This document shows, in pieces, positions 1-8,772 of a DNA stretch of 8,772 nucleotides. This DNA is from a virus (taxonomy: Duplodnaviria > Heunggongvirae > Uroviricota > Caudoviricetes), in the IMG/VR virus record IMGVR_UViG_2548876958_000017. One strand, 5' to 3'. The notes under the pieces are model-generated. The model saw only the letters and a program-made list of their open reading frames with translations, did no database searches and had not been told where the DNA came from. Each line of letters starts with the position of its first letter. Position 1 is the stretch's first letter. Both the position numbers and the translations under genes were made by a program.

Positions 1-84
1 GCGCCACTGATCGCCCACTTCCTTCAGTTCATGGGCTGGTTTGTTCCGCAGTTCCACCAGCGCCTGGCAATATTTATTACTCAT
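1..84 (-). CDS. Partial CDS, N-terminal 28 codons only (continues past window start); product unknown, possibly a phage Dam-like DNA methyltransferase (speculative)
   Basis: Reverse-strand ATG at 84..82 overlaps the stop of the upstream gene (TAATG). Translation MSNKYCQALVELRNKPAHELKEVGDQWR stays open to position 1. The final DQWR could begin a D.W.TP motif, but the rest is outside the window. Confidence 0.4.
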   Translation of the reverse strand, partial: MSNKYCQALVELRNKPAHELKEVGDQWR

Positions 85-578
85 TAAGCCCCCACGTAAT
101 TCCCTGACAGATACCACTCTTCACCCGATGCAGCGCGCTTGCTGCTTTTCCGTAAGCACCGCTCACGACGCGCCAGAAAATTGTTTCGTTCTGGCTGGGA
201 GTGGCTTTCACGGAATGCCGCCATCCACACGGTTGCAGCACGACGGTATAAGCCCCTGGACTCCAGTTCTTCCGCCTGGCGGGTCAGGCACAAAATCACA
301 CGGGGATCGTTAGTGCCGACATAGAAATTGCGCACAGGTCTGGTTTCACGAACTGGTTGTGGTTCCGGTTCCTGCGCTCTCTCAGTCAGGCGCGGGAAAT
401 GTCTGCGTGTATCTCCTTCACAACGGTGAGCCACACGCCCACTCTGACGTAACTTGCTTGCTGACTGCAGAACGCGCTGCCGTGAGTAACCGGCAAAAGC
501 ATCCGCAATATCTCCGGAAGTACAGCCCGGATGGGCTTCAATGAATTTCTGAACGTCATTCAAAAGACTCATGCTCAC
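84..578 (-). CDS. Putative PerC/ANR-family-like transcriptional regulator with an N-terminal winged-helix-like domain (164 aa)
   Basis: ATG at 578..576 overlaps the stop of the O-like gene (ATGA coupling). The C-terminal segment LESRGLYRRAATVWMAAF...RRERCLRK resembles the PerC-family motif (GLWRRAA..W / RRN.C) as I recall it. The N-terminal ~60 aa look like a small DNA-binding fold. Family assignment is from memory only. Confidence 0.5.
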   Translation of the reverse strand: MSMSLLNDVQKFIEAHPGCTSGDIADAFAGYSRQRVLQSASKLRQSGRVAHRCEGDTRRHFPRLTERAQEPEPQPVRETRPVRNFYVGTNDPRVILCLTRQAEELESRGLYRRAATVWMAAFRESHSQPERNNFLARRERCLRKSSKRAASGEEWYLSGNYVGA

Positions 579-1516
579 CCCCTGAATCCTGCCGGGATCT
601 GGCTGTAGTCCACGTTGTCGTAACTGGCTTTGAAGTACGGGTCTTCGCGTTTTTCGGTGTACGTGCTGACGGACGGCGATAAGCGCAGGGAAAGCTCATC
701 CCATTTTTCCCGCAGCTTCGACGGGCTGAGCACGTTACGGCACCAGAACGGATCGCGACTGACGCGGCTGTACATCTCGCAGATTTGTTTATGAGTACGA
801 CCATCCTGCACACACATCAGGCGAATTTCGTTTGCCCAGGCTGTCCAGTTCGGTTCTTTGGGACGAACCACCTCGCCGTCACATTCGGCGGCCTGCTCGT
901 ACAGGGCGATGATTTTTTTCCAGAGCCACTGTGCGCAGGTCAAATCATCCTGCGTTCCCCACTGGCGCTTTTTAGGGCTGAATACAACCGCATCAGGATG
1001 GCGAGTTAAAAACTCCTGTTCAGCCGTCTGCGTGTCCGGTTGCGAAGCGTCCGGACGAGAAGTTTTTTTATCTGACGGATCATGTTTTGATTTTACTGAC
1101 GGATCCCCGCCAGATTCTGACGGGTGAAAACCCGCTTTTTTGCCAGATTTCGACGCATCAAATTTTGACGGGTCAGATTTTGATGCGTCAGATTTTGACG
1201 GGTCAGAATCTGACAGTTGAGAAAATGCCGCTGCCTGAAGCTTCGCAACGTTAAGCTGATAAACATTCGACGCATTGCGGTTACCCTGGCGACGCGCCTT
1301 ACGCGTTAACCAGCCTTCTGCTTCCAGCCGTGCGATAGCCGTTCTGACGGTACTCATTCCCGCGCCAATCTGGCGGGCAATGGTTTCAATTGATGGCCAG
1401 CACACACCTTCGTCATTACTGAAATCAGCTAGGCGGGCCATAATTGCCACGCTGGATAATTTCATGCCTGATGCAGCGCAACCATCCCATACATAGCCGG
1501 TTAATTTAGTGCTCAT
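575..1516 (-). CDS. Lambda O-like replication initiator (313 aa) containing the presumed origin iterons
   Basis: GAGG sits 6 nt upstream of ATG (1516..1514). The N-terminal segment is HTH-like (SVAIMARLADFSNDEGVCWPSIETIARQIGAGMSTVRTAIARLEAEGWL). The central low-complexity peptide DPSKSDASKSDPSKFDASKS is encoded by tandem ~15-bp repeats, as in lambda O where ori lies inside the gene. Confidence 0.8.
   Translation of the reverse strand: MSTKLTGYVWDGCAASGMKLSSVAIMARLADFSNDEGVCWPSIETIARQIGAGMSTVRTAIARLEAEGWLTRKARRQGNRNASNVYQLNVAKLQAAAFSQLSDSDPSKSDASKSDPSKFDASKSGKKAGFHPSESGGDPSVKSKHDPSDKKTSRPDASQPDTQTAEQEFLTRHPDAVVFSPKKRQWGTQDDLTCAQWLWKKIIALYEQAAECDGEVVRPKEPNWTAWANEIRLMCVQDGRTHKQICEMYSRVSRDPFWCRNVLSPSKLREKWDELSLRLSPSVSTYTEKREDPYFKASYDNVDYSQIPAGFRG
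1069..1219. repeat. Iteron array (about 7-8 copies, ~15-bp period, core CAGATTTTGACGGGT / TGACGG) inside the O-like gene; candidate replication origin
   Basis: Direct repeats read in sequence: tatctgacggatc, ttactgacggatc, cagattctgacgggt, cagatttcgacgcat, aaattttgacgggtc, agattttgatgcgtc, agattttgacgggtc, agaatctgacagttg. Confidence 0.75.
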
Positions 1517-1525
1517 GACCGACCT

Positions 1526-1864
1526 CTATTTCCCTGAATTTACGACGAAACTGTTCGAGCGGGCTGAAGCACTCATGCTCATAGCCTTCGCGGAGGTAGA
1601 TAACTCGTTGTGTTTCCGGCTCCCAACGAATGACTCTGACGGGCACTCCGTAGTGATCTTTGAACCAGCGGTTAACTTGTCGCAAAGGACTGTCTCCTTC
1701 TGCCGGTTGAAATCACCCACAGCCCACTCAGCAAAGCTGTGGGTTACAATTTCCCTGTCACCTGGTACATTAACTGCATAGCAATACTCCACCTTCGCTT
1801 TTCCACCCGGTACAGGAAGCGCAATCAGTTGCGAGCGACGGTAGTGTGTTGTTAAACTGTTCAT
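1526..1864 (-). CDS. Hypothetical protein (112 aa) between the CII-like and O-like genes
   Basis: ATG at 1864..1862 overlaps the stop of the upstream CII-like gene (ATGA). Its stop lies 9 nt before the O-like start. The C-terminal third is low-complexity (Ser/Ala-rich), so coding status is uncertain. Confidence 0.4.
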
Positions 1865-2424
1865 GCGTTAGTTTCTCCACAGTCACGACACGCCACGGCG
1901 CCCGGAGCTGCACACTCGCGGGCGTCATTACTTTCTGAAATGCAAAAGATTTTGTAGACCAGTGCTGCATGCTCCTGCAGCTTCGAAATTGAGAGATACA
2001 GCTCGTCGTTAATTGCTGTCTTCTCATGCGGTTCCACCACACCGTCTTCGATTGCCGAACGAATCTGTCTGGAATAACTGCCAATCTGTTCAATGACTTC
2101 CAGCAGGCGCTGGTTAATATCGGCGTTGTCCACATCCTCGACGTCAGGAAGAGACACAAAGACGCCATTTGCAGACTGCGCCACAGCGTCAGCAATGAAG
2201 TGAGTGCCACCAGCACGTTGTAAAATCATTGCCCATCCCAGCGGGAAAATCTGATCGCCATCGGCACGAAGGCGGTTAAATAATGCGTTCTCTGTTACAT
2301 CCAGCCAGTCAGCTGCTTCAGCGTAACCACCCGGCAACTTTGCGATAGTTTTTCTGACAGCTTTCACGTACCACTCAGGCTGTTTTTCTACTTTCCAGTG
2401 ATGCTTACCCACGGTTAGCCTCAT
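1861..2424 (-). CDS. CII-like lysogeny-establishment regulator (187 aa), resembling the phage 186 CII / YdaT-type family
   Basis: It occupies the cII position directly downstream of cro. The segment [37 protein letters not shown] resembles the 186 CII region (...LRNKLNPEQPHQFTPPELWLL...DGFLAQ) from memory. The start is ambiguous: ATG at 2424 has no clear SD, while an in-frame GTG 12 nt downstream has AGG upstream. Confidence 0.55.
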
Positions 2425-2746: not shown

Positions 2747-3421
2747 ATGAAAACAATCCATGACATCCGGCGGTCTAACGCCAGAAAACTGAGAGATGGT
2801 GTTGGCGGGAATTCTTCCTTTGCCACTATGATTGATCGCGAGCCAACCCAGACCAGCAGGTTTATGGGAGATGGGGCTACTAAAAATATCGGTGACAGCA
2901 TGGCACGACACATCGAAAAATGTTTCGACCTGCCTGTCGGATGGCTCGATCAAGAACACCAGACAACGAACATCACAAAAAAACCTGATGTTTCAATCAC
3001 TAATAAACAAATCACATTAGTCCCTGTCATATCATGGGTACAGGCCGGAGCATGGAAAGAAGTTGGATATTCTGAGGTTGATTTGAGCACAGCAGAAACG
3101 TATCCCTGCCCTGTACCCTGTGGGGAAATGACTTATATCTTGCGGGTGATAGGTGATTCAATGATTGATGAGTACCGCCCGGGAGACATGATTTTTGTCG
3201 ATCCTGAAGTACCTGCCTGCCACGGTGACGACGTTATTGCATTGATGCACGATACAGGCGAAACCACCTTCAAAAGGTTGATAGAAGATGGGACACAGCG
3301 TTATCTTAAAGCGTTAAACCCAAACTGGCCTGAGCCTTACATTAAGATCAACGGTAATTGCTCTATAATTGGTACAGTGATTTTCTCCGGAAAACCAAGA
3401 AGATACAAAATCAAAGCCTAA
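2747..3421 (+). CDS. CI-type prophage repressor with a C-terminal S24 (LexA-like) autopeptidase domain (224 aa)
   Basis: The C-terminal domain closely parallels P22 C2 / lambda CI: ...ISWVQAGAWKE..., catalytic-Ser context VIGDSM, and Lys context TFKRL; compare P22 C2 ISWVSAGQW...QGDSM...TFKKL. The N-terminal ~90 aa are a distinct DNA-binding domain. It is divergent from cro across the operator region. Confidence 0.9.
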   Translation: MKTIHDIRRSNARKLRDGVGGNSSFATMIDREPTQTSRFMGDGATKNIGDSMARHIEKCFDLPVGWLDQEHQTTNITKKPDVSITNKQITLVPVISWVQAGAWKEVGYSEVDLSTAETYPCPVPCGEMTYILRVIGDSMIDEYRPGDMIFVDPEVPACHGDDVIALMHDTGETTFKRLIEDGTQRYLKALNPNWPEPYIKINGNCSIIGTVIFSGKPRRYKIKA

Positions 3422-3493: not shown

Positions 3494-3592
3494 CAACCGA
3501 AACAACGAACAGGCAGGACGCCCACGAAGTAGCCGCCGGTGGCGTATGAATGACCGGATGATTCGTTAAATACTATGTGTAAGAGAGCGCAA

Positions 3593-3796
3593 ATGAACCG
3601 TTATTTCACATGCTCGTTTTGTGGCGCAAACGAGCTGCAGGCAAAAAAAATCATCGCCAAAGGCGGAAAAGATGAAATTGCTATCTGCTCTGAGTGCGTA
3701 GTCTTGTGTGTCGGGGCATTAATCAATATCAGCACAACTATTCAGTTCACACCAAATGAGAATGCGCCTTTAGATGCGAGGAAATCTGGAGGTTAA
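3593..3796 (+). CDS. Small free-standing ClpX-type C4 zinc-finger (ZBD-like) protein (67 aa)
   Basis: Start ATG at 3593 is preceded by GAGAG; the upstream ATG at 3575 has no SD. YFTCSFCGANELQAKKIIAKGGKDEIAICSECVVLCVGALI aligns with the E. coli ClpX N-terminal zinc-binding domain [37 protein letters not shown] (CSFCG ... IC.ECV.LC, four Cys). Confidence 0.7.
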   Translation: MNRYFTCSFCGANELQAKKIIAKGGKDEIAICSECVVLCVGALINISTTIQFTPNENAPLDARKSGG

Positions 3797-4259: not shown

Positions 4260-4729
4260 AGCCTGAAGTGGTGAAAAGACAGGCACATAACAGCTAAGTA
4301 TTTTCAACCAGAGAGAATCCTTAGCGTTGTGGTGAATGCGGCTCAGCGCACGCGGGTTAAGGTTGAGGCTGACAGTCGACCTTCTGTGGATACCCACCCG
4401 CCTGGTGTGCAACCTTCGCCAGGCACCGGGAGGCACCCGGCACCACAACTTTATGCTGTGTGTAGTCTTGGCGGTACCAGCTTGTACCCTTGCTTCCGGC
4501 TGGTACCGTCCTTTTTACAAAACAGAGAAGAGCATCACCGGACGACGGGCTCATAACCCAATCCATCCGGGCGGCTGCCACCGCAGGTGTTCTTCTCTGT
4601 TTTGTGGAGAAACTAACCGCCCCTACGGGGGCATTTATGGAAATGTAATTGACTCAATAATCGCCGGACGGTGAGGGCCTCCTTTTACCCGAATTCAGCG
4701 CGGTGCAGCGCATATACGTGGAGAACAAA
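4260..4729. other. GC-rich, ORF-poor, hairpin-dense non-coding island (candidate structured RNA or DNA site)
   Basis: Only overlapping ORFs rich in Arg/Gly/Pro and rare codons (AGG, CGG, GGG). 41 of 60 bases at 4381..4440 are G or C, against 22 of 60 at 4081..4140. Perfect 15-bp inverted repeat ACAAAACAGAGAAGA (4517..4531) / TCTTCTCTGTTTTGT (4591..4605); perfect 10-bp inverted repeat CGGTACCAGC (4472..4481) / GCTGGTACCG (4499..4508); further hairpins at 4400..4424, 4426..4440 and 4619..4632. Confidence 0.5.
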
Positions 4730-5266
4730 ATGTCATTTATTAAAACTTTTTCCGGGAAGCATTTTTATTATGACAGGATAAATAAAGACGACATCGTTAT
4801 TAACGATATCGCGGTTTCCCTTTCAAATATCTGTCGCTTTGCAGGACATCTTTCACACTTCTACAGTGTCGCCCAACATGCGGTGCTTTGCAGCCAGCTA
4901 GTGCCACAGGAATTTGCTTTTGAAGCTTTAATGCATGATGCAACAGAAGCATATTGCCAGGACATCCCCGCACCACTGAAACGACTTCTTCCTGACTATA
5001 AACGGATGGAAGAAAAAATAGACGCCGTAATCCGTGAGAAATACGGGTTACCTCCTGTTATGAGCACGCCAGTGAAATATGCCGATCTCATTATGCTGGC
5101 AACCGAACGCCGCGATCTCGGGCTTGATGATGGCTCTTTCTGGCCTGTACTGGAAGGTATCCCGGCAACAGAGATGTTCAAAGTGATTCCACAGGCACCG
5201 AGCCATGCCTACGGGATGTTTATGGAACGTTTTAACGAGTTATCGGAGTTACGCAAATGCGCATGA
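4730..5266 (+). CDS. HD-domain phosphohydrolase, YfbR/YfdR-like putative 5'-deoxynucleotidase (178 aa)
   Basis: SD GGAGA 5 nt before ATG 4730. HD-superfamily metal-ligand pattern: H in ...FAGHLSHFYSVAQHAVL..., HD in ...ALMHDATEAYCQDIP..., downstream D in ...YADLIML.... Size and motif order match the small prophage HD hydrolases such as CPS-53 YfdR as I recall them. Confidence 0.8.
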   Translation: MSFIKTFSGKHFYYDRINKDDIVINDIAVSLSNICRFAGHLSHFYSVAQHAVLCSQLVPQEFAFEALMHDATEAYCQDIPAPLKRLLPDYKRMEEKIDAVIREKYGLPPVMSTPVKYADLIMLATERRDLGLDDGSFWPVLEGIPATEMFKVIPQAPSHAYGMFMERFNELSELRKCA

Positions 5267-5924: not shown

Positions 5925-6274
5925 TGGAGCCATACAGCCTCACACTCGATGAGGCCTGTCATTTTCTCAAGATATCCAGACCGACTGCCATTAACTGGAT
6001 ACGCACAGGGCGTCTTCAGGCAACACGCAAAGATCCCACTAAGAATAAATCTCCTTACCTCACAACACGACAAGCCTGCATTGCGGCTCTTCAGTCTCCG
6101 CTGCATACTGTCCAGGTGAGCGCGGGTGATGGCATAACAGAGGAAAGAAAATGTCACTCTTCCGCAGAGGTGAAATATGGTACGCCAGTTTCACATTGCC
6201 GAACGGTAAAAGATTTAAACAGTCTCTTGGAACAAAGGACAAAAGGCAGGCGACAGAACTCCATGACAAGCTAA
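5924..6274 (+). CDS. xis: Excisionase (Xis), P22-type, 116 aa; its 3' end overlaps int by 124 nt
   Basis: ATG 5924 is translationally coupled to the upstream gene, with GAGGTGA as SD. The N-terminal sequence [30 protein letters not shown] is a classic excisionase/AlpA-type HTH. It sits immediately upstream of int. The 116-aa length matches my recollection of P22 Xis. Confidence 0.75.
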
Positions 6275-7314
6275 AGGCTGAAGCATGGCGGGTCAGCAAA
6301 CTTGGTGAAATACCTGATATAACGTTCGAGGAAGCGTGTGTCAGGTGGCTTGAAGAGAAAGCACATAAAAAATCACTGGACGATGACAAAAGCCGGATCG
6401 GATTCTGGCTTCAACATTTCGCAGGAATGCAACTAAGAGACATTACTGAATCAAAAATTTATTCAGCAATGCAGAAAATGACGAACCGGCGTCATGAGGA
6501 AAACTGGAAACTCAGGGCAGAAGCATGCAGAAAAAAAGGGAAACCTGTTCCAGAATACACGCCAAAACCAGCGTCCGTTGCAACGAAGGCTACGCATCTT
6601 TCATTTATAAAGGCCCTACTAAGAGCCGCAGAGCGTGAATGGAAAATGCTGGATAAGGCACCAATTATTAAAGTGCCTCAACCAAAGAATAAACGGATCC
6701 GCTGGCTGGAGCCCCATGAAGCACAAAGGCTGATTGATGAATGTCCGGAGCCATTAAAGTCTGTTGTTGAATTTGCACTGGCAACAGGCTTAAGACGCTC
6801 GAACATCATCAACCTTGAATGGCAACAAATAGATATGCAGCGCCGGGTGGCATGGATAAACCCGGAAGAGAGTAAATCAAACCGCGCAATTGGCGTTGCG
6901 CTGAATGATACTGCATGTCGCGTATTGAAAAAACAAATCGGGAATCATCACCGTTGGGTATTTGTGTACAAGGAAAGCTGTACCAAACCAGACGGAACGA
7001 AAGCGCCAACAGTCAGGAAGATGCGGTATGACGCAAACACAGCCTGGAAAGCGGCGCTGAGACGGGCTGGTATTGATGATTTCAGATTTCACGACTTGAG
7101 ACACACCTGGGCAAGTTGGCTGGTTCAAGCCGGAGTCCCGTTGTCAGTGTTACAGGAAATGGGAGGCTGGGAGTCTATCGAAATGGTTCGTCGATATGCT
7201 CACCTTGCACCTAATCACCTTACCGAACACGCACGGCAAATAGACTCGATCCTGAACCCATCGGTCCCAAATTTGTCCCAGTCAAAAAATAAGGAAGATA
7301 CTAATGATGTGTAA
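6151..7314 (+). CDS. int: Tyrosine site-specific integrase, P22-like (387 aa)
   Basis: SD GAGGAAAG before ATG 6151. The N-terminus [46 protein letters not shown] is nearly identical to P22 Int as I recall it. C-terminal catalytic region has R...HDLRHT...RY ([39 protein letters not shown]). It ends 15 bp from the tRNA 3' end. Confidence 0.95.
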
Positions 7315-7328
7315 CTTATTGATTTAAA

Positions 7329-7404
7329 TGGTGCCGATAATAGGAGTCGAACCTACGACCTTCGCATTACGAATGCGCTGCTCTACCAACTGAGCTATAT
7401 CGGC
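7329..7404 (-). tRNA. thrW: tRNA-Thr (anticodon CGU), with encoded CCA
   Basis: The reverse complement reads GCCGATATAGCTCAGTTGGTAGAGCAGCGCATTCGTAATGCGAAGGTCGTAGGTTCGACTCCTATTATCGGCACCA. It has canonical D-loop (AGCTCAGTTGGTAGAGC), anticodon loop (CATTCGTAATG) and T-loop (GGTTCGACTCC), and a 7-bp acceptor stem (GCCGATA / TATCGGC). Confidence 0.97.
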
Positions 7405-7518: not shown

Positions 7519-8772
7519 TTACGCACGAATGGTGTAATCACCAATGCCGATCCACTTGTAAGTGGTCAGTGCTTCCAGCCCCATTGGGCCACGCGCGTGG
7601 AGTTTTTGTGTGCTTACCGCCACTTCCGCACCCAGACCAAACTGGCCGCCGTCGGTAAAACGCGTAGAGGCGTTAACGTAAACAGCGGACGAATCCACTT
7701 CGTTAACAAAACGCTGGGCGTTGCGCATATCGCGGGTCAGGATCGCATCGGAGTGTTGTGTGCCGTGTTCACGAATATGGGCGATGGCATCGTCAAGATC
7801 GCTGACGATTTTGACGTTCAAATCTAATGACAGAAACTCATCGTCATACTCTTCGGCTTTAACAGCAACCACCTTCGCAGGGCCTGCCTGCAACTGCGCC
7901 AGTGCAGCTGCATCTGCGTGTAATGTCACGCCGCTTTCCGCCATTTGTTTGCTTAATGCGGGCAGGAAGCTATCGGCGATGTTTTTATTCACCAGCAACG
8001 TTTCAACCGTATTACATGTGCTCGGACGCTGAGTTTTCGCGTTGACGATCACTTTTAATGCTTCAGCGATCTCTACACTTTCATCAACGTAAATATGGCA
8101 TACGCCTATACCACCTGTGATCACCGGGATTGTCGACTGTTCACGGCACAGTTTATGCAAACCAGCGCCACCACGCGGGATCAGCATGTCGATGTATTTA
8201 TCCATACGCAGCATTTCACTGACCAGCGCACGGTCAGGATTATCAATCGCCTGCACGGCACCCGCCGGTAAGCCGCAGGATTTCAGGGCGTCCTGAATCA
8301 CCGCCACCGTTGCAGCGTTAGTGCGACACGTTTCTTTGCCACCGCGCAGGATCACCGCATTACCGGTTTTCAGGCACAGCGAAGCGACATCAACCGTCAC
8401 GTTCGGGCGCGCTTCATAAATCACGCCAATAACCCCCAGCGGTACGCGACGACGCTCAAGACGCAGGCCGCTGTCCAGTACGCTGCCATCGATTACCTGC
8501 CCCACCGGATCGGCGAGGTTACACACCTGGCGCACATCATCGGCAATGCCTTTCAGCCGTGCGGGCGTCAGTGCCAGACGGTCAAGCATCGCTTCGCCAA
8601 GGCCATTGGCACGCGCGTCAGCAACATCCTGGGCGTTAGCGTTGAGGATGATTTCGCTTTGTGCTTCCAGTTCATCGGCGATTTTTTCCAGCACGCGATT
8701 TTTTTCGCGGCTGGAGAGTTGCGCTAATTTATACGAGGCTTGCTTCGCGGCAATGCCCATTTGTTCCAGCAT
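7519..8772 (-). CDS. proA: Gamma-glutamyl phosphate reductase (glutamate-5-semialdehyde dehydrogenase), 417 aa
   Basis: Full-length ORF whose translation ([30 protein letters not shown] ... [15 protein letters not shown]) I recognise as Escherichia coli ProA. The start codon is the last three bases of the window, so upstream context is absent. Confidence 0.95.

Follow-up and report, generated by a model that had tools for sequence, protein, structure and literature searches.

The theta plasmids pSC101, R6K and P1 (at oriR) carry tandem initiator-binding repeats beside an A+T-rich unwinding element, and in P1 oriR the unwinding region also contains GATC. As a rule, plasmid iterons are 17-22 bp long, keep helical phase, lie outside the coding sequence of rep and have DnaA boxes beside them. 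In the temperate phages lambda, P22 and L, distinct iterons are found inside the O-type genes (10.1101/2020.10.05.325894). Gene 18 of P22 contains four repeats of about 20 bp, while phage L has six imprecise 11-bp repeats (10.1101/2020.10.05.325894). In the same way, the Stx phages P27 and 933W have six-iteron origins in which the additional copies matter for replication (PMC7466680). The present analysis concerns a window of 8,772 nucleotides (nt), that is the whole stretch of viral DNA analysed (IMG/VR record IMGVR_UViG_2548876958_000017), which is the early region of a temperate prophage of the SfII/SfIV/CPS-53-like type integrated at thrW, tRNA-Thr(CGT), near a proA-like gene. An island of 162 bp at 1058-1219, located within the gene of an O-like replication initiator, is conserved across many genera at the level of the DNA, not of the protein, which makes it likely that this phage type has its replication origin inside its own initiator gene.

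The initiator (575..1516, YfdO / O-like type) matches PHROG 391, 'replication initiation O-like', over its full length (amino acids (aa) 1-313, E=1.6e-135), and its gene is 98-99% identical to the SfII and SfIV genes annotated 'O protein family / primosomal protein'. The gene and its parts are as follows.

575..1516, minus strand: initiator gene, 313 aa
1220..1516, minus strand: N-domain, winged-helix HTH_36, codons 1-99 (Pfam PF13730 at aa 23-70, E=4e-11)
1058..1219: DNA-conserved island and proposed origin, 162 bp, gene nt 298-459, codons 100-153 (from synonymous diversity and per-base conservation)
1145..1213: class-A iteron array, five 15-bp units (from repeat finding and shuffles)
1121..1144: variable hinge with A6 and T4 tracts, GGCAAAAAAGCGGGTTTTCACCCG on the gene strand (low per-base conservation)
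1106..1120: near-invariant palindrome, TCAGAATCTGG plus CGGG on the gene strand (per-base conservation)
1082..1105: class-B unit 1, 24 bp, GATCCGTCAGTAAAATCAAAACAT on the gene strand, 67% A+T, GATC at 1102-1105
1058..1081: class-B unit 2, 24 bp, GATCCGTCAGATAAAAAAACTTCT on the gene strand, 67% A+T, GATC at 1078-1081
575..1024, minus strand: lambda-O-type C-domain, codons about 165-313, ending in the tail ...IPAGFRG

By BLASTP, the C-domain is 30% identical to lambda O over 216 aa (E=1e-25), most strongly at aa 182-277, and it also matches DnaD-like and replisome-organizer PHROGs. Lambda O used as a tblastn query matches the window at 686-1309. No match to PF04492 (Phage_rep_O, the N-domain of lambda O) was found in the initiator at E<=0.01, whereas lambda O itself reached 5.7e-36 in the same library; weak similarity of the N-domain to DnaD_N and RP-C was detected besides HTH_36. 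The HTH_36 N-domain, the PHROG 391 match and the lambda-O-homologous C-domain indicate an initiator of the O type whose DNA-binding head differs from that of lambda O. In a structure predicted from a 14-row alignment, aa 100-161 are without secondary structure, and the mean predicted local distance difference test (pLDDT) score of 46 is too poor for fold searches.

Repeats in the middle of this gene had been reported in the initial annotation. They lie in codons 100-153 of 313 and were readily recovered by Tandem Repeats Finder as an array at 1144-1207 with a period of 15 bp (4.3 copies, score 86) and, for the same array, at a period of 30 bp (score 100), while the highest score in 200 dinucleotide shuffles of the window was 62. 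The degenerate motif GAYSCRTCR (gene strand) occurs six times within 1073-1204, compared with a maximum of two per 160-nt span in 500 shuffles. The repeats are real and well beyond what chance would give. The repeat region encodes SDSDPSKSDASKSDPSKFDASKS...GGDPSVKSKHDPSDKK, and the tandem part reads TCT GAC CCG TCA AAA / TCT GAC GCA TCA AAA / ... on the gene strand, which is translated SDPSK SDASK SDPSK FDASK and agrees with the DPSK/DASK linker described before. The number of about eight 15-bp repeats is reached by a lenient count, but only five of them form a 15-bp tandem, with units starting at 1144, 1159, 1174, 1189 and 1204 in a repeat search. The outlying TGACGG copies at 1073, 1097 and 1118 (spacings of 33, 21 and 24 bp) belong to a differently organised and better conserved block. 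Moreover, TGACGG was not upheld as the repeat core, since across homologues CGG falls in the variable spacer of the tandem and the conserved core is the quasi-palindrome TCARAWTCTGA(Y) of 11-12 bp.

Conservation was followed in 79 homologous loci taken from one-genome-per-species contigs, 72 of which entered a codon alignment. The loci span Shigella/Escherichia, Salmonella-like bacteria, Citrobacter, Enterobacter, Kosakonia, Pantoea, Yersinia, Rahnella, Providencia, Proteus and others. In the window, the class-A units have 12-mer cores, TCARAWTCTGAY on the gene strand, at 1202-1213, 1187-1198, 1172-1183, 1157-1168 and 1142-1153, the last being degenerate and extending 3 bp past the lower bound of the array. 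Every core is followed by a variable 3-nt spacer that forms a P, A or T codon. Each core is dyad-symmetric, and TCAGAWTCTGA is an 11-bp palindrome. From 1 to 6 class-A cores are present per gene in the 72 loci; 157 of the 182 core-to-core spacings are exactly 15 bp, and the number of tandem units varies in whole 15-bp steps. The hinge contains a terminator-like hairpin on the plus, non-coding strand (1121-1134) that was judged incidental. Next to it, (T/C)CAGAATCTGG at 1109-1120 is kept in nearly all of 41 aligned homologues.

The class-B units both begin with GATCCGTCAG and number 1-3 per gene, and all 47 of the 47 unit-to-unit spacings are 24 bp. The A+T content is 71% over the 42 nt from TCAGTAAAA to ACTTCT, versus 47% over the whole gene, and the two units together are a candidate unwinding region. 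At least 120 viral contigs contain the exact 21-nt class-B block. Of the 80 contigs examined, 76 have it in frame within an initiator homologue, and two of the remaining four are truncated at an end. The GATC-bearing 24-bp units are common to the whole family, whatever the N-domain variant or the C-domain type. GATC is expected by chance in the window about 0.5 times per 160 nt, and the observed pair, each at the head of its class-B unit, lies 24 bp apart. The first class-B GATC is invariant in 72 of 72 loci and the second is present in nearly all (Asp is encoded by GAT in 64 of the 64 having Asp there). A Dam methylase is encoded shortly downstream of the initiator in related phages, right after the PerC gene in SfII and SfV, and directly after the initiator in two further loci (L026 and L010).

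When compared with ori-lambda, the array likewise lies inside the initiator gene, 3' of the codons for the DNA-binding domain (the four annotated lambda iterons are at O nt 349-433 and the island here is at nt 298-459). In both, the repeats are dyad-symmetric and the C-terminal domains are homologous; the promoter-distal A+T-rich DNA of lambda may have its counterpart here in the modestly A+T-richer class-B units. On the contrary, the N-domain is Phage_rep_O in lambda and HTH_36 here, and the four 18-bp iterons at 20-24 bp of lambda are replaced by five 15-bp units and two 24-bp units. In addition, the A+T tract is weaker, GATC lies inside the repeats and no P gene was found. P22 and phage L also have distantly related O-type genes with their own short internal repeats, those of phage L being, as here, deduced from sequence. 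However, their initiator is paired with a DnaB-type helicase (gene 12), of which none was found here, and the repeat sequences are unrelated. As in the Stx phages, the iteron number varies among related replicons (1-6 copies here), but the Stx origins consist of lambda-type iterons served by O and P and were demonstrated by electrophoretic mobility shift assay and footprinting, whereas the present one is a candidate deduced from sequence. Finally, as in theta plasmids, the repeats adjoin an A+T-rich segment, with GATC there as in P1 oriR; unlike those of plasmids, they are coding and have a 15-bp period, with no DnaA box in the island.

Support for an origin comes from the codons. Synonymous codon diversity was on average 0.14 (median 0.05) over codons 100-151, versus 0.52 elsewhere in the gene (Mann-Whitney p=1.2e-17), while amino-acid diversity was 0.38 in the island versus 0.23 in the folded N-domain. 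Serine in the island is encoded by the rare codon TCA in 72 of 72, 66 of 66 and 68 of 69 sequences, valine by GTA in 71 of 71, aspartate by GAT in 72 of 72 and lysine by AAA throughout. Outside it, 3-5 synonymous codons are in use for the conserved residues of codons 85-97 and those past 157, and 4-5 for flanking leucine and alanine. In homologues down to 39% protein identity, SKSDP is replaced by SESER, a charge reversal, and yet the 15-bp period and the core TCAGAATCTGA are retained, as is the near-invariant downstream block GAATCTGGnGGGGATCCGTCAGTAAATTCAAAA..GATCCATCAG. The DNA core common to distant homologues is TCARAWTCTGA. The alignment thus indicates that the repeats are under purifying selection at the DNA level, independent of the encoded peptide, and a near-fixed codon choice combined with a varying peptide suggests a cis-acting DNA element placed in a tolerant linker. 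A change of the class-A core from ..GAC to ..GAA was seen only with the most divergent N-domains (identity of 68% or less); it is confounded by phylogeny and is not counted as evidence.

The way in which the island is inherited points in the same direction. The region from aa 1 to about 161, comprising the N-domain and the repeats, is 80-92% identical in proteins that have an unrelated Phg_2220_C C-domain. Conversely, an E. coli gene that shares only the C-domain (window 575..1062, with a homology breakpoint at 1062) has another N-terminal half and carries its own 23-bp repeats, in 5-6 copies, at the equivalent position. A third type, SfV orf39, has its own 24-bp repeats at the equivalent position. 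Because C-domain swaps keep both the head and the repeats, and other N-domains bring other repeats, the repeats and the DNA-binding head travel together. The junction lies just after the island. Iterons and the domain that recognises them should behave in this way, and the pattern agrees with the descriptions of lambda, P22 and phage L (10.1101/2020.10.05.325894) and of Stx phages (PMC7466680). In K-12, the yfdO remnant of CPS-53 (L004 2501..3208) aligns with no more of the window than 575..1283, and its annotation records a missing N-terminus. Since the island is whole in it and most of the DNA-binding domain is gone, it may be regarded as an orphan copy of the putative origin. Altogether, the frozen synonymous sites, the modular inheritance, the repeats of the sister initiators and the lambda-like position favour the view, first put forward in the initial annotation, of an iteron-type origin inside the O-like gene that mirrors ori-lambda. 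All the computational tests able to tell a cis-acting element linked to the initiator from a repetitive linker came out for the DNA element.

Replication would then be expected to proceed as follows. Early rightward transcription from the immunity region would yield the 313-aa initiator, whose N-terminal winged helix would bind the TCARAWTCTGA cores, namely the five 15-bp tandem units and then the palindrome TCAGAATCTGG. The resulting nucleoprotein complex would stress and open the adjoining 67-71% A+T segment made of the two 24-bp GATC units, and the lambda-O-like C-domain would bring in the host helicase. It is thus proposed that the initiator binds the repeats, that the A+T-rich part unwinds and that replication starts at the island. 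The sequence and number of the repeats would presumably set replicon specificity, and by analogy with lambda they could cause incompatibility with co-resident lambdoid prophages, two consequences that had been stated outright at the outset.

Other explanations of the island have to be weighed against an origin. A cis-acting DNA element of another kind is conceivable, such as an operator-like site for autoregulation or downstream control, or a homology patch for module exchange. Conservation at the DNA level is by itself silent on function, and the island sits exactly at the junction of differing C-domains. Moreover, the class-B block is invariant even where the N-domain has diverged (39-60% overall protein identity), which could mean that the variable part of the initiator does not read it. 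Nevertheless, no sigma-70-like promoter was found in or near the island by a promoter scan, and a recombination patch would homogenise long flanks pairwise rather than leave a sharp 160-bp island amid diverged flanks in nearly all lineages. In addition, the replication region yielded no second candidate for an origin, and in the sister initiator types this spot is taken by arrays of their own, as the lambdoid paradigm predicts (10.1101/2020.10.05.325894). A non-origin element is consequently held to be unlikely. The repeats could also be a mere low-complexity DPSK/DASK peptide linker, generated by replication slippage and conserved as protein. Their period is a multiple of three, their copy number varies in whole units, and they encode a hydrophilic stretch between two folded domains that has no secondary structure in the low-confidence model. 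Such a linker is hardly credible as the cause of the conservation, given that synonymous sites are far better conserved than amino acids, that the DNA core persists through the SESER charge reversal and that the rare TCA is fixed in 72 of 72 sequences.

Two further sources of synonymous constraint were examined. The first is a second gene overlapping the island, for which 1093..1275 (minus strand) and 1087..1254 (plus strand) are the candidates. Every locus has three alternative frames that run through the tandem part without a stop, as follows from the repetition of a stop-free 15-mer. However, their starts and ends are inconsistent: in two of the three frames the minimum length from the first ATG, GTG or TTG is 0, some loci having no start codon at all, and the third frame, which gives at least 39 aa from a start codon in every locus, ends differently between loci. 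The sense +1 frame is moreover closed by a conserved TAA in the class-B block, and the constraint runs on past this TAA, so that an overlapping gene is extremely improbable. The second is a conserved structure in the mRNA or in single-stranded DNA that would, for example, control the translation or stability of the initiator message. The island as it stands in the window does fold strongly (-53.2 kcal/mol versus -30.4 +/- 3.3 kcal/mol in shuffles, z=-7.0), which is explained by the palindromic nature of the repeat units. The consensus of 41 homologues, on the contrary, reaches only -6.8 kcal/mol, with +0.05 as its covariation term. The long hairpins seen in the window do not recur in the homologues, most loci have GAC where the central stem needs the Asp codon GAT, and the island has no Rfam match. 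A conserved RNA or single-strand structure is thus very improbable as well.

Several observations nonetheless weigh against the island being an origin and explain why it is regarded as likely rather than certain. No DnaA box (TTWTNCACA, with at most one mismatch) is present in 1058-1219, and the count in the whole window is at chance level. Lambda-type iterons of 18-20 bp at 20-24 bp spacing are not seen, only the class-B pair being 24 bp apart. The 15-bp period corresponds to a non-integral number of helical turns and places adjoining sites on nearly opposite faces of the helix, unlike in lambda. The A+T-rich part is only moderate, with 67-71% A+T over 42-48 bp and a GC content down to 40-45% in 40-nt windows. 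A tblastn search with lambda P gave no homologue, either in the window or anywhere in the genome of SfII, a viable phage (E>=5.9), and no helicase or loader gene is annotated in the window or in the complete SfII annotation. With neither accompanying the initiator, the steps downstream of it are unexplained. As regards the approach, one of the two patterns used to collect loci, [SP]ESGGDPSV, sits in the island and could enrich for peptide-level conservation there, although it leaves codon choice free. As for a positive control of the synonymous-site scan on a known origin, the lambda O relatives retrieved from viral contigs are all 99-100% identical, which precluded a synonymous profile of lambda O. 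Finally, experimental evidence for binding or origin activity in this replicon type was not encountered in the papers searched.

The C-domain of lambda O acts through P. In the place occupied by P in lambda, the gene next to the initiator is of the PerC/YfdN family. The tail ...(D)..IPxGFRG is common to initiators with three C-domain types (window 575..598, L003 2501..3493, L001 3575..4393 and P0022-P0106). The last 24 residues are identical in the window protein, in the hybrid with a canonical O and in SfV orf39, and the IPxGFRG tail may be a motif for docking a host factor. A broader and clearly more tentative proposal, which for now has to be considered doubtful, is that of a replicon descended from lambda O that makes do with neither a P-type loader nor a helicase of the phage. 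It would have a two-tier origin, in which the 15-bp units give specificity and the near-invariant 24-bp GATC units serve as a universal platform for unwinding or host factors, possibly read by Dam/SeqA, while the IPxGFRG tail would dock the host helicase machinery directly.

An origin of this replicon type was not described in the SfI, SfIV, CPS-53 or Stx-phage papers searched, and the SfI and SfIV genome papers make no mention of an origin. In the available portions of the Stx-phage papers on 'Eru' replication types, none of the replication proteins described matches the initiator, and the replication of such phages is called unstudied. The candidate is therefore apparently an uncharacterised member of a well-known class of origins. 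The initiator gene is present, at least in part, in 2725 of 5426 complete E. coli genomes, so that a precise 162-bp candidate origin is now available for a replicon type found in about half of them, in the CPS-53 remnant of K-12 and in SfII and SfIV, which are serotype-converting phages of Shigella. To a specialist, an origin at this place is to be expected; what deserves attention is the conservation of DNA over protein, the arrangement in two unit classes with GATC sites, and the fact that no loader was found. The last raises the question of how a lambda-O-type C-domain achieves helicase loading without P. More generally, an origin embedded in an initiator gene may be located, with nothing but sequence, by a loss of synonymous variation. 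The candidate origin should help in predicting the prophages that share replicon specificity. It also calls for caution, as codon-optimising such genes could destroy the embedded origin.

Around the initiator, the window contains the following features.

84..578, minus strand: PerC/YfdN-family gene, 164 aa (PerC domain at aa 100-151, weak MarR-like match at aa 7-70)
1506..1685, minus strand: DUF4222 gene, 59 aa (E=8.6e-19)
1861..2424, minus strand: CII(CP76)-like gene
2747..3421, plus strand: cI-like S24 repressor, from which a Cro/YdaS-like gene is divergent
6151..7314, plus strand: integrase
7329..7404, minus strand: tRNA-Thr(CGT), the sole Rfam match in the window
7519..8772, minus strand: aldehyde-dehydrogenase-family gene (proA-like)

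The Shigella phages SfIV and SfII are 98% identical to the window over 69-75% of its length, and the gene order on the minus strand is the lambdoid one. The DUF4222 gene overlaps the initiator start codon by 11 nt and is also found beside the initiator in E. coli genome annotations. The integrase directly adjoins the tRNA-Thr(CGT), the thrW attachment site, as in SfII, SfIV and SfV; no gtr serotype-conversion genes are present between int and the tRNA in the window.

Two plus-strand genes may also touch on replication. Just downstream of the cI-like repressor, an open reading frame of 73 aa (3575..3796) corresponds to a stand-alone ClpX C4 zinc-finger domain (PF06689, E=7.4e-10). Because lambda O is a classical ClpXP substrate, such a free zinc-binding domain could modulate the turnover of the O-like initiator. 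The other, at 4703..5266, codes for a protein with an HD domain, whose match to the 5'-deoxynucleotidase YfbR-like family is below threshold. The gene at the same map position in SfII and in CPS-53 of K-12, matched by position, is annotated as 5'-deoxynucleotidase or yfdR. YfdR of K-12 was reported to bind DnaA, and overexpression of yfdQRST inhibits initiation at oriC (PMC4776307). The HD-domain gene may thus represent a phage control of host replication, carried beside the phage's own origin.

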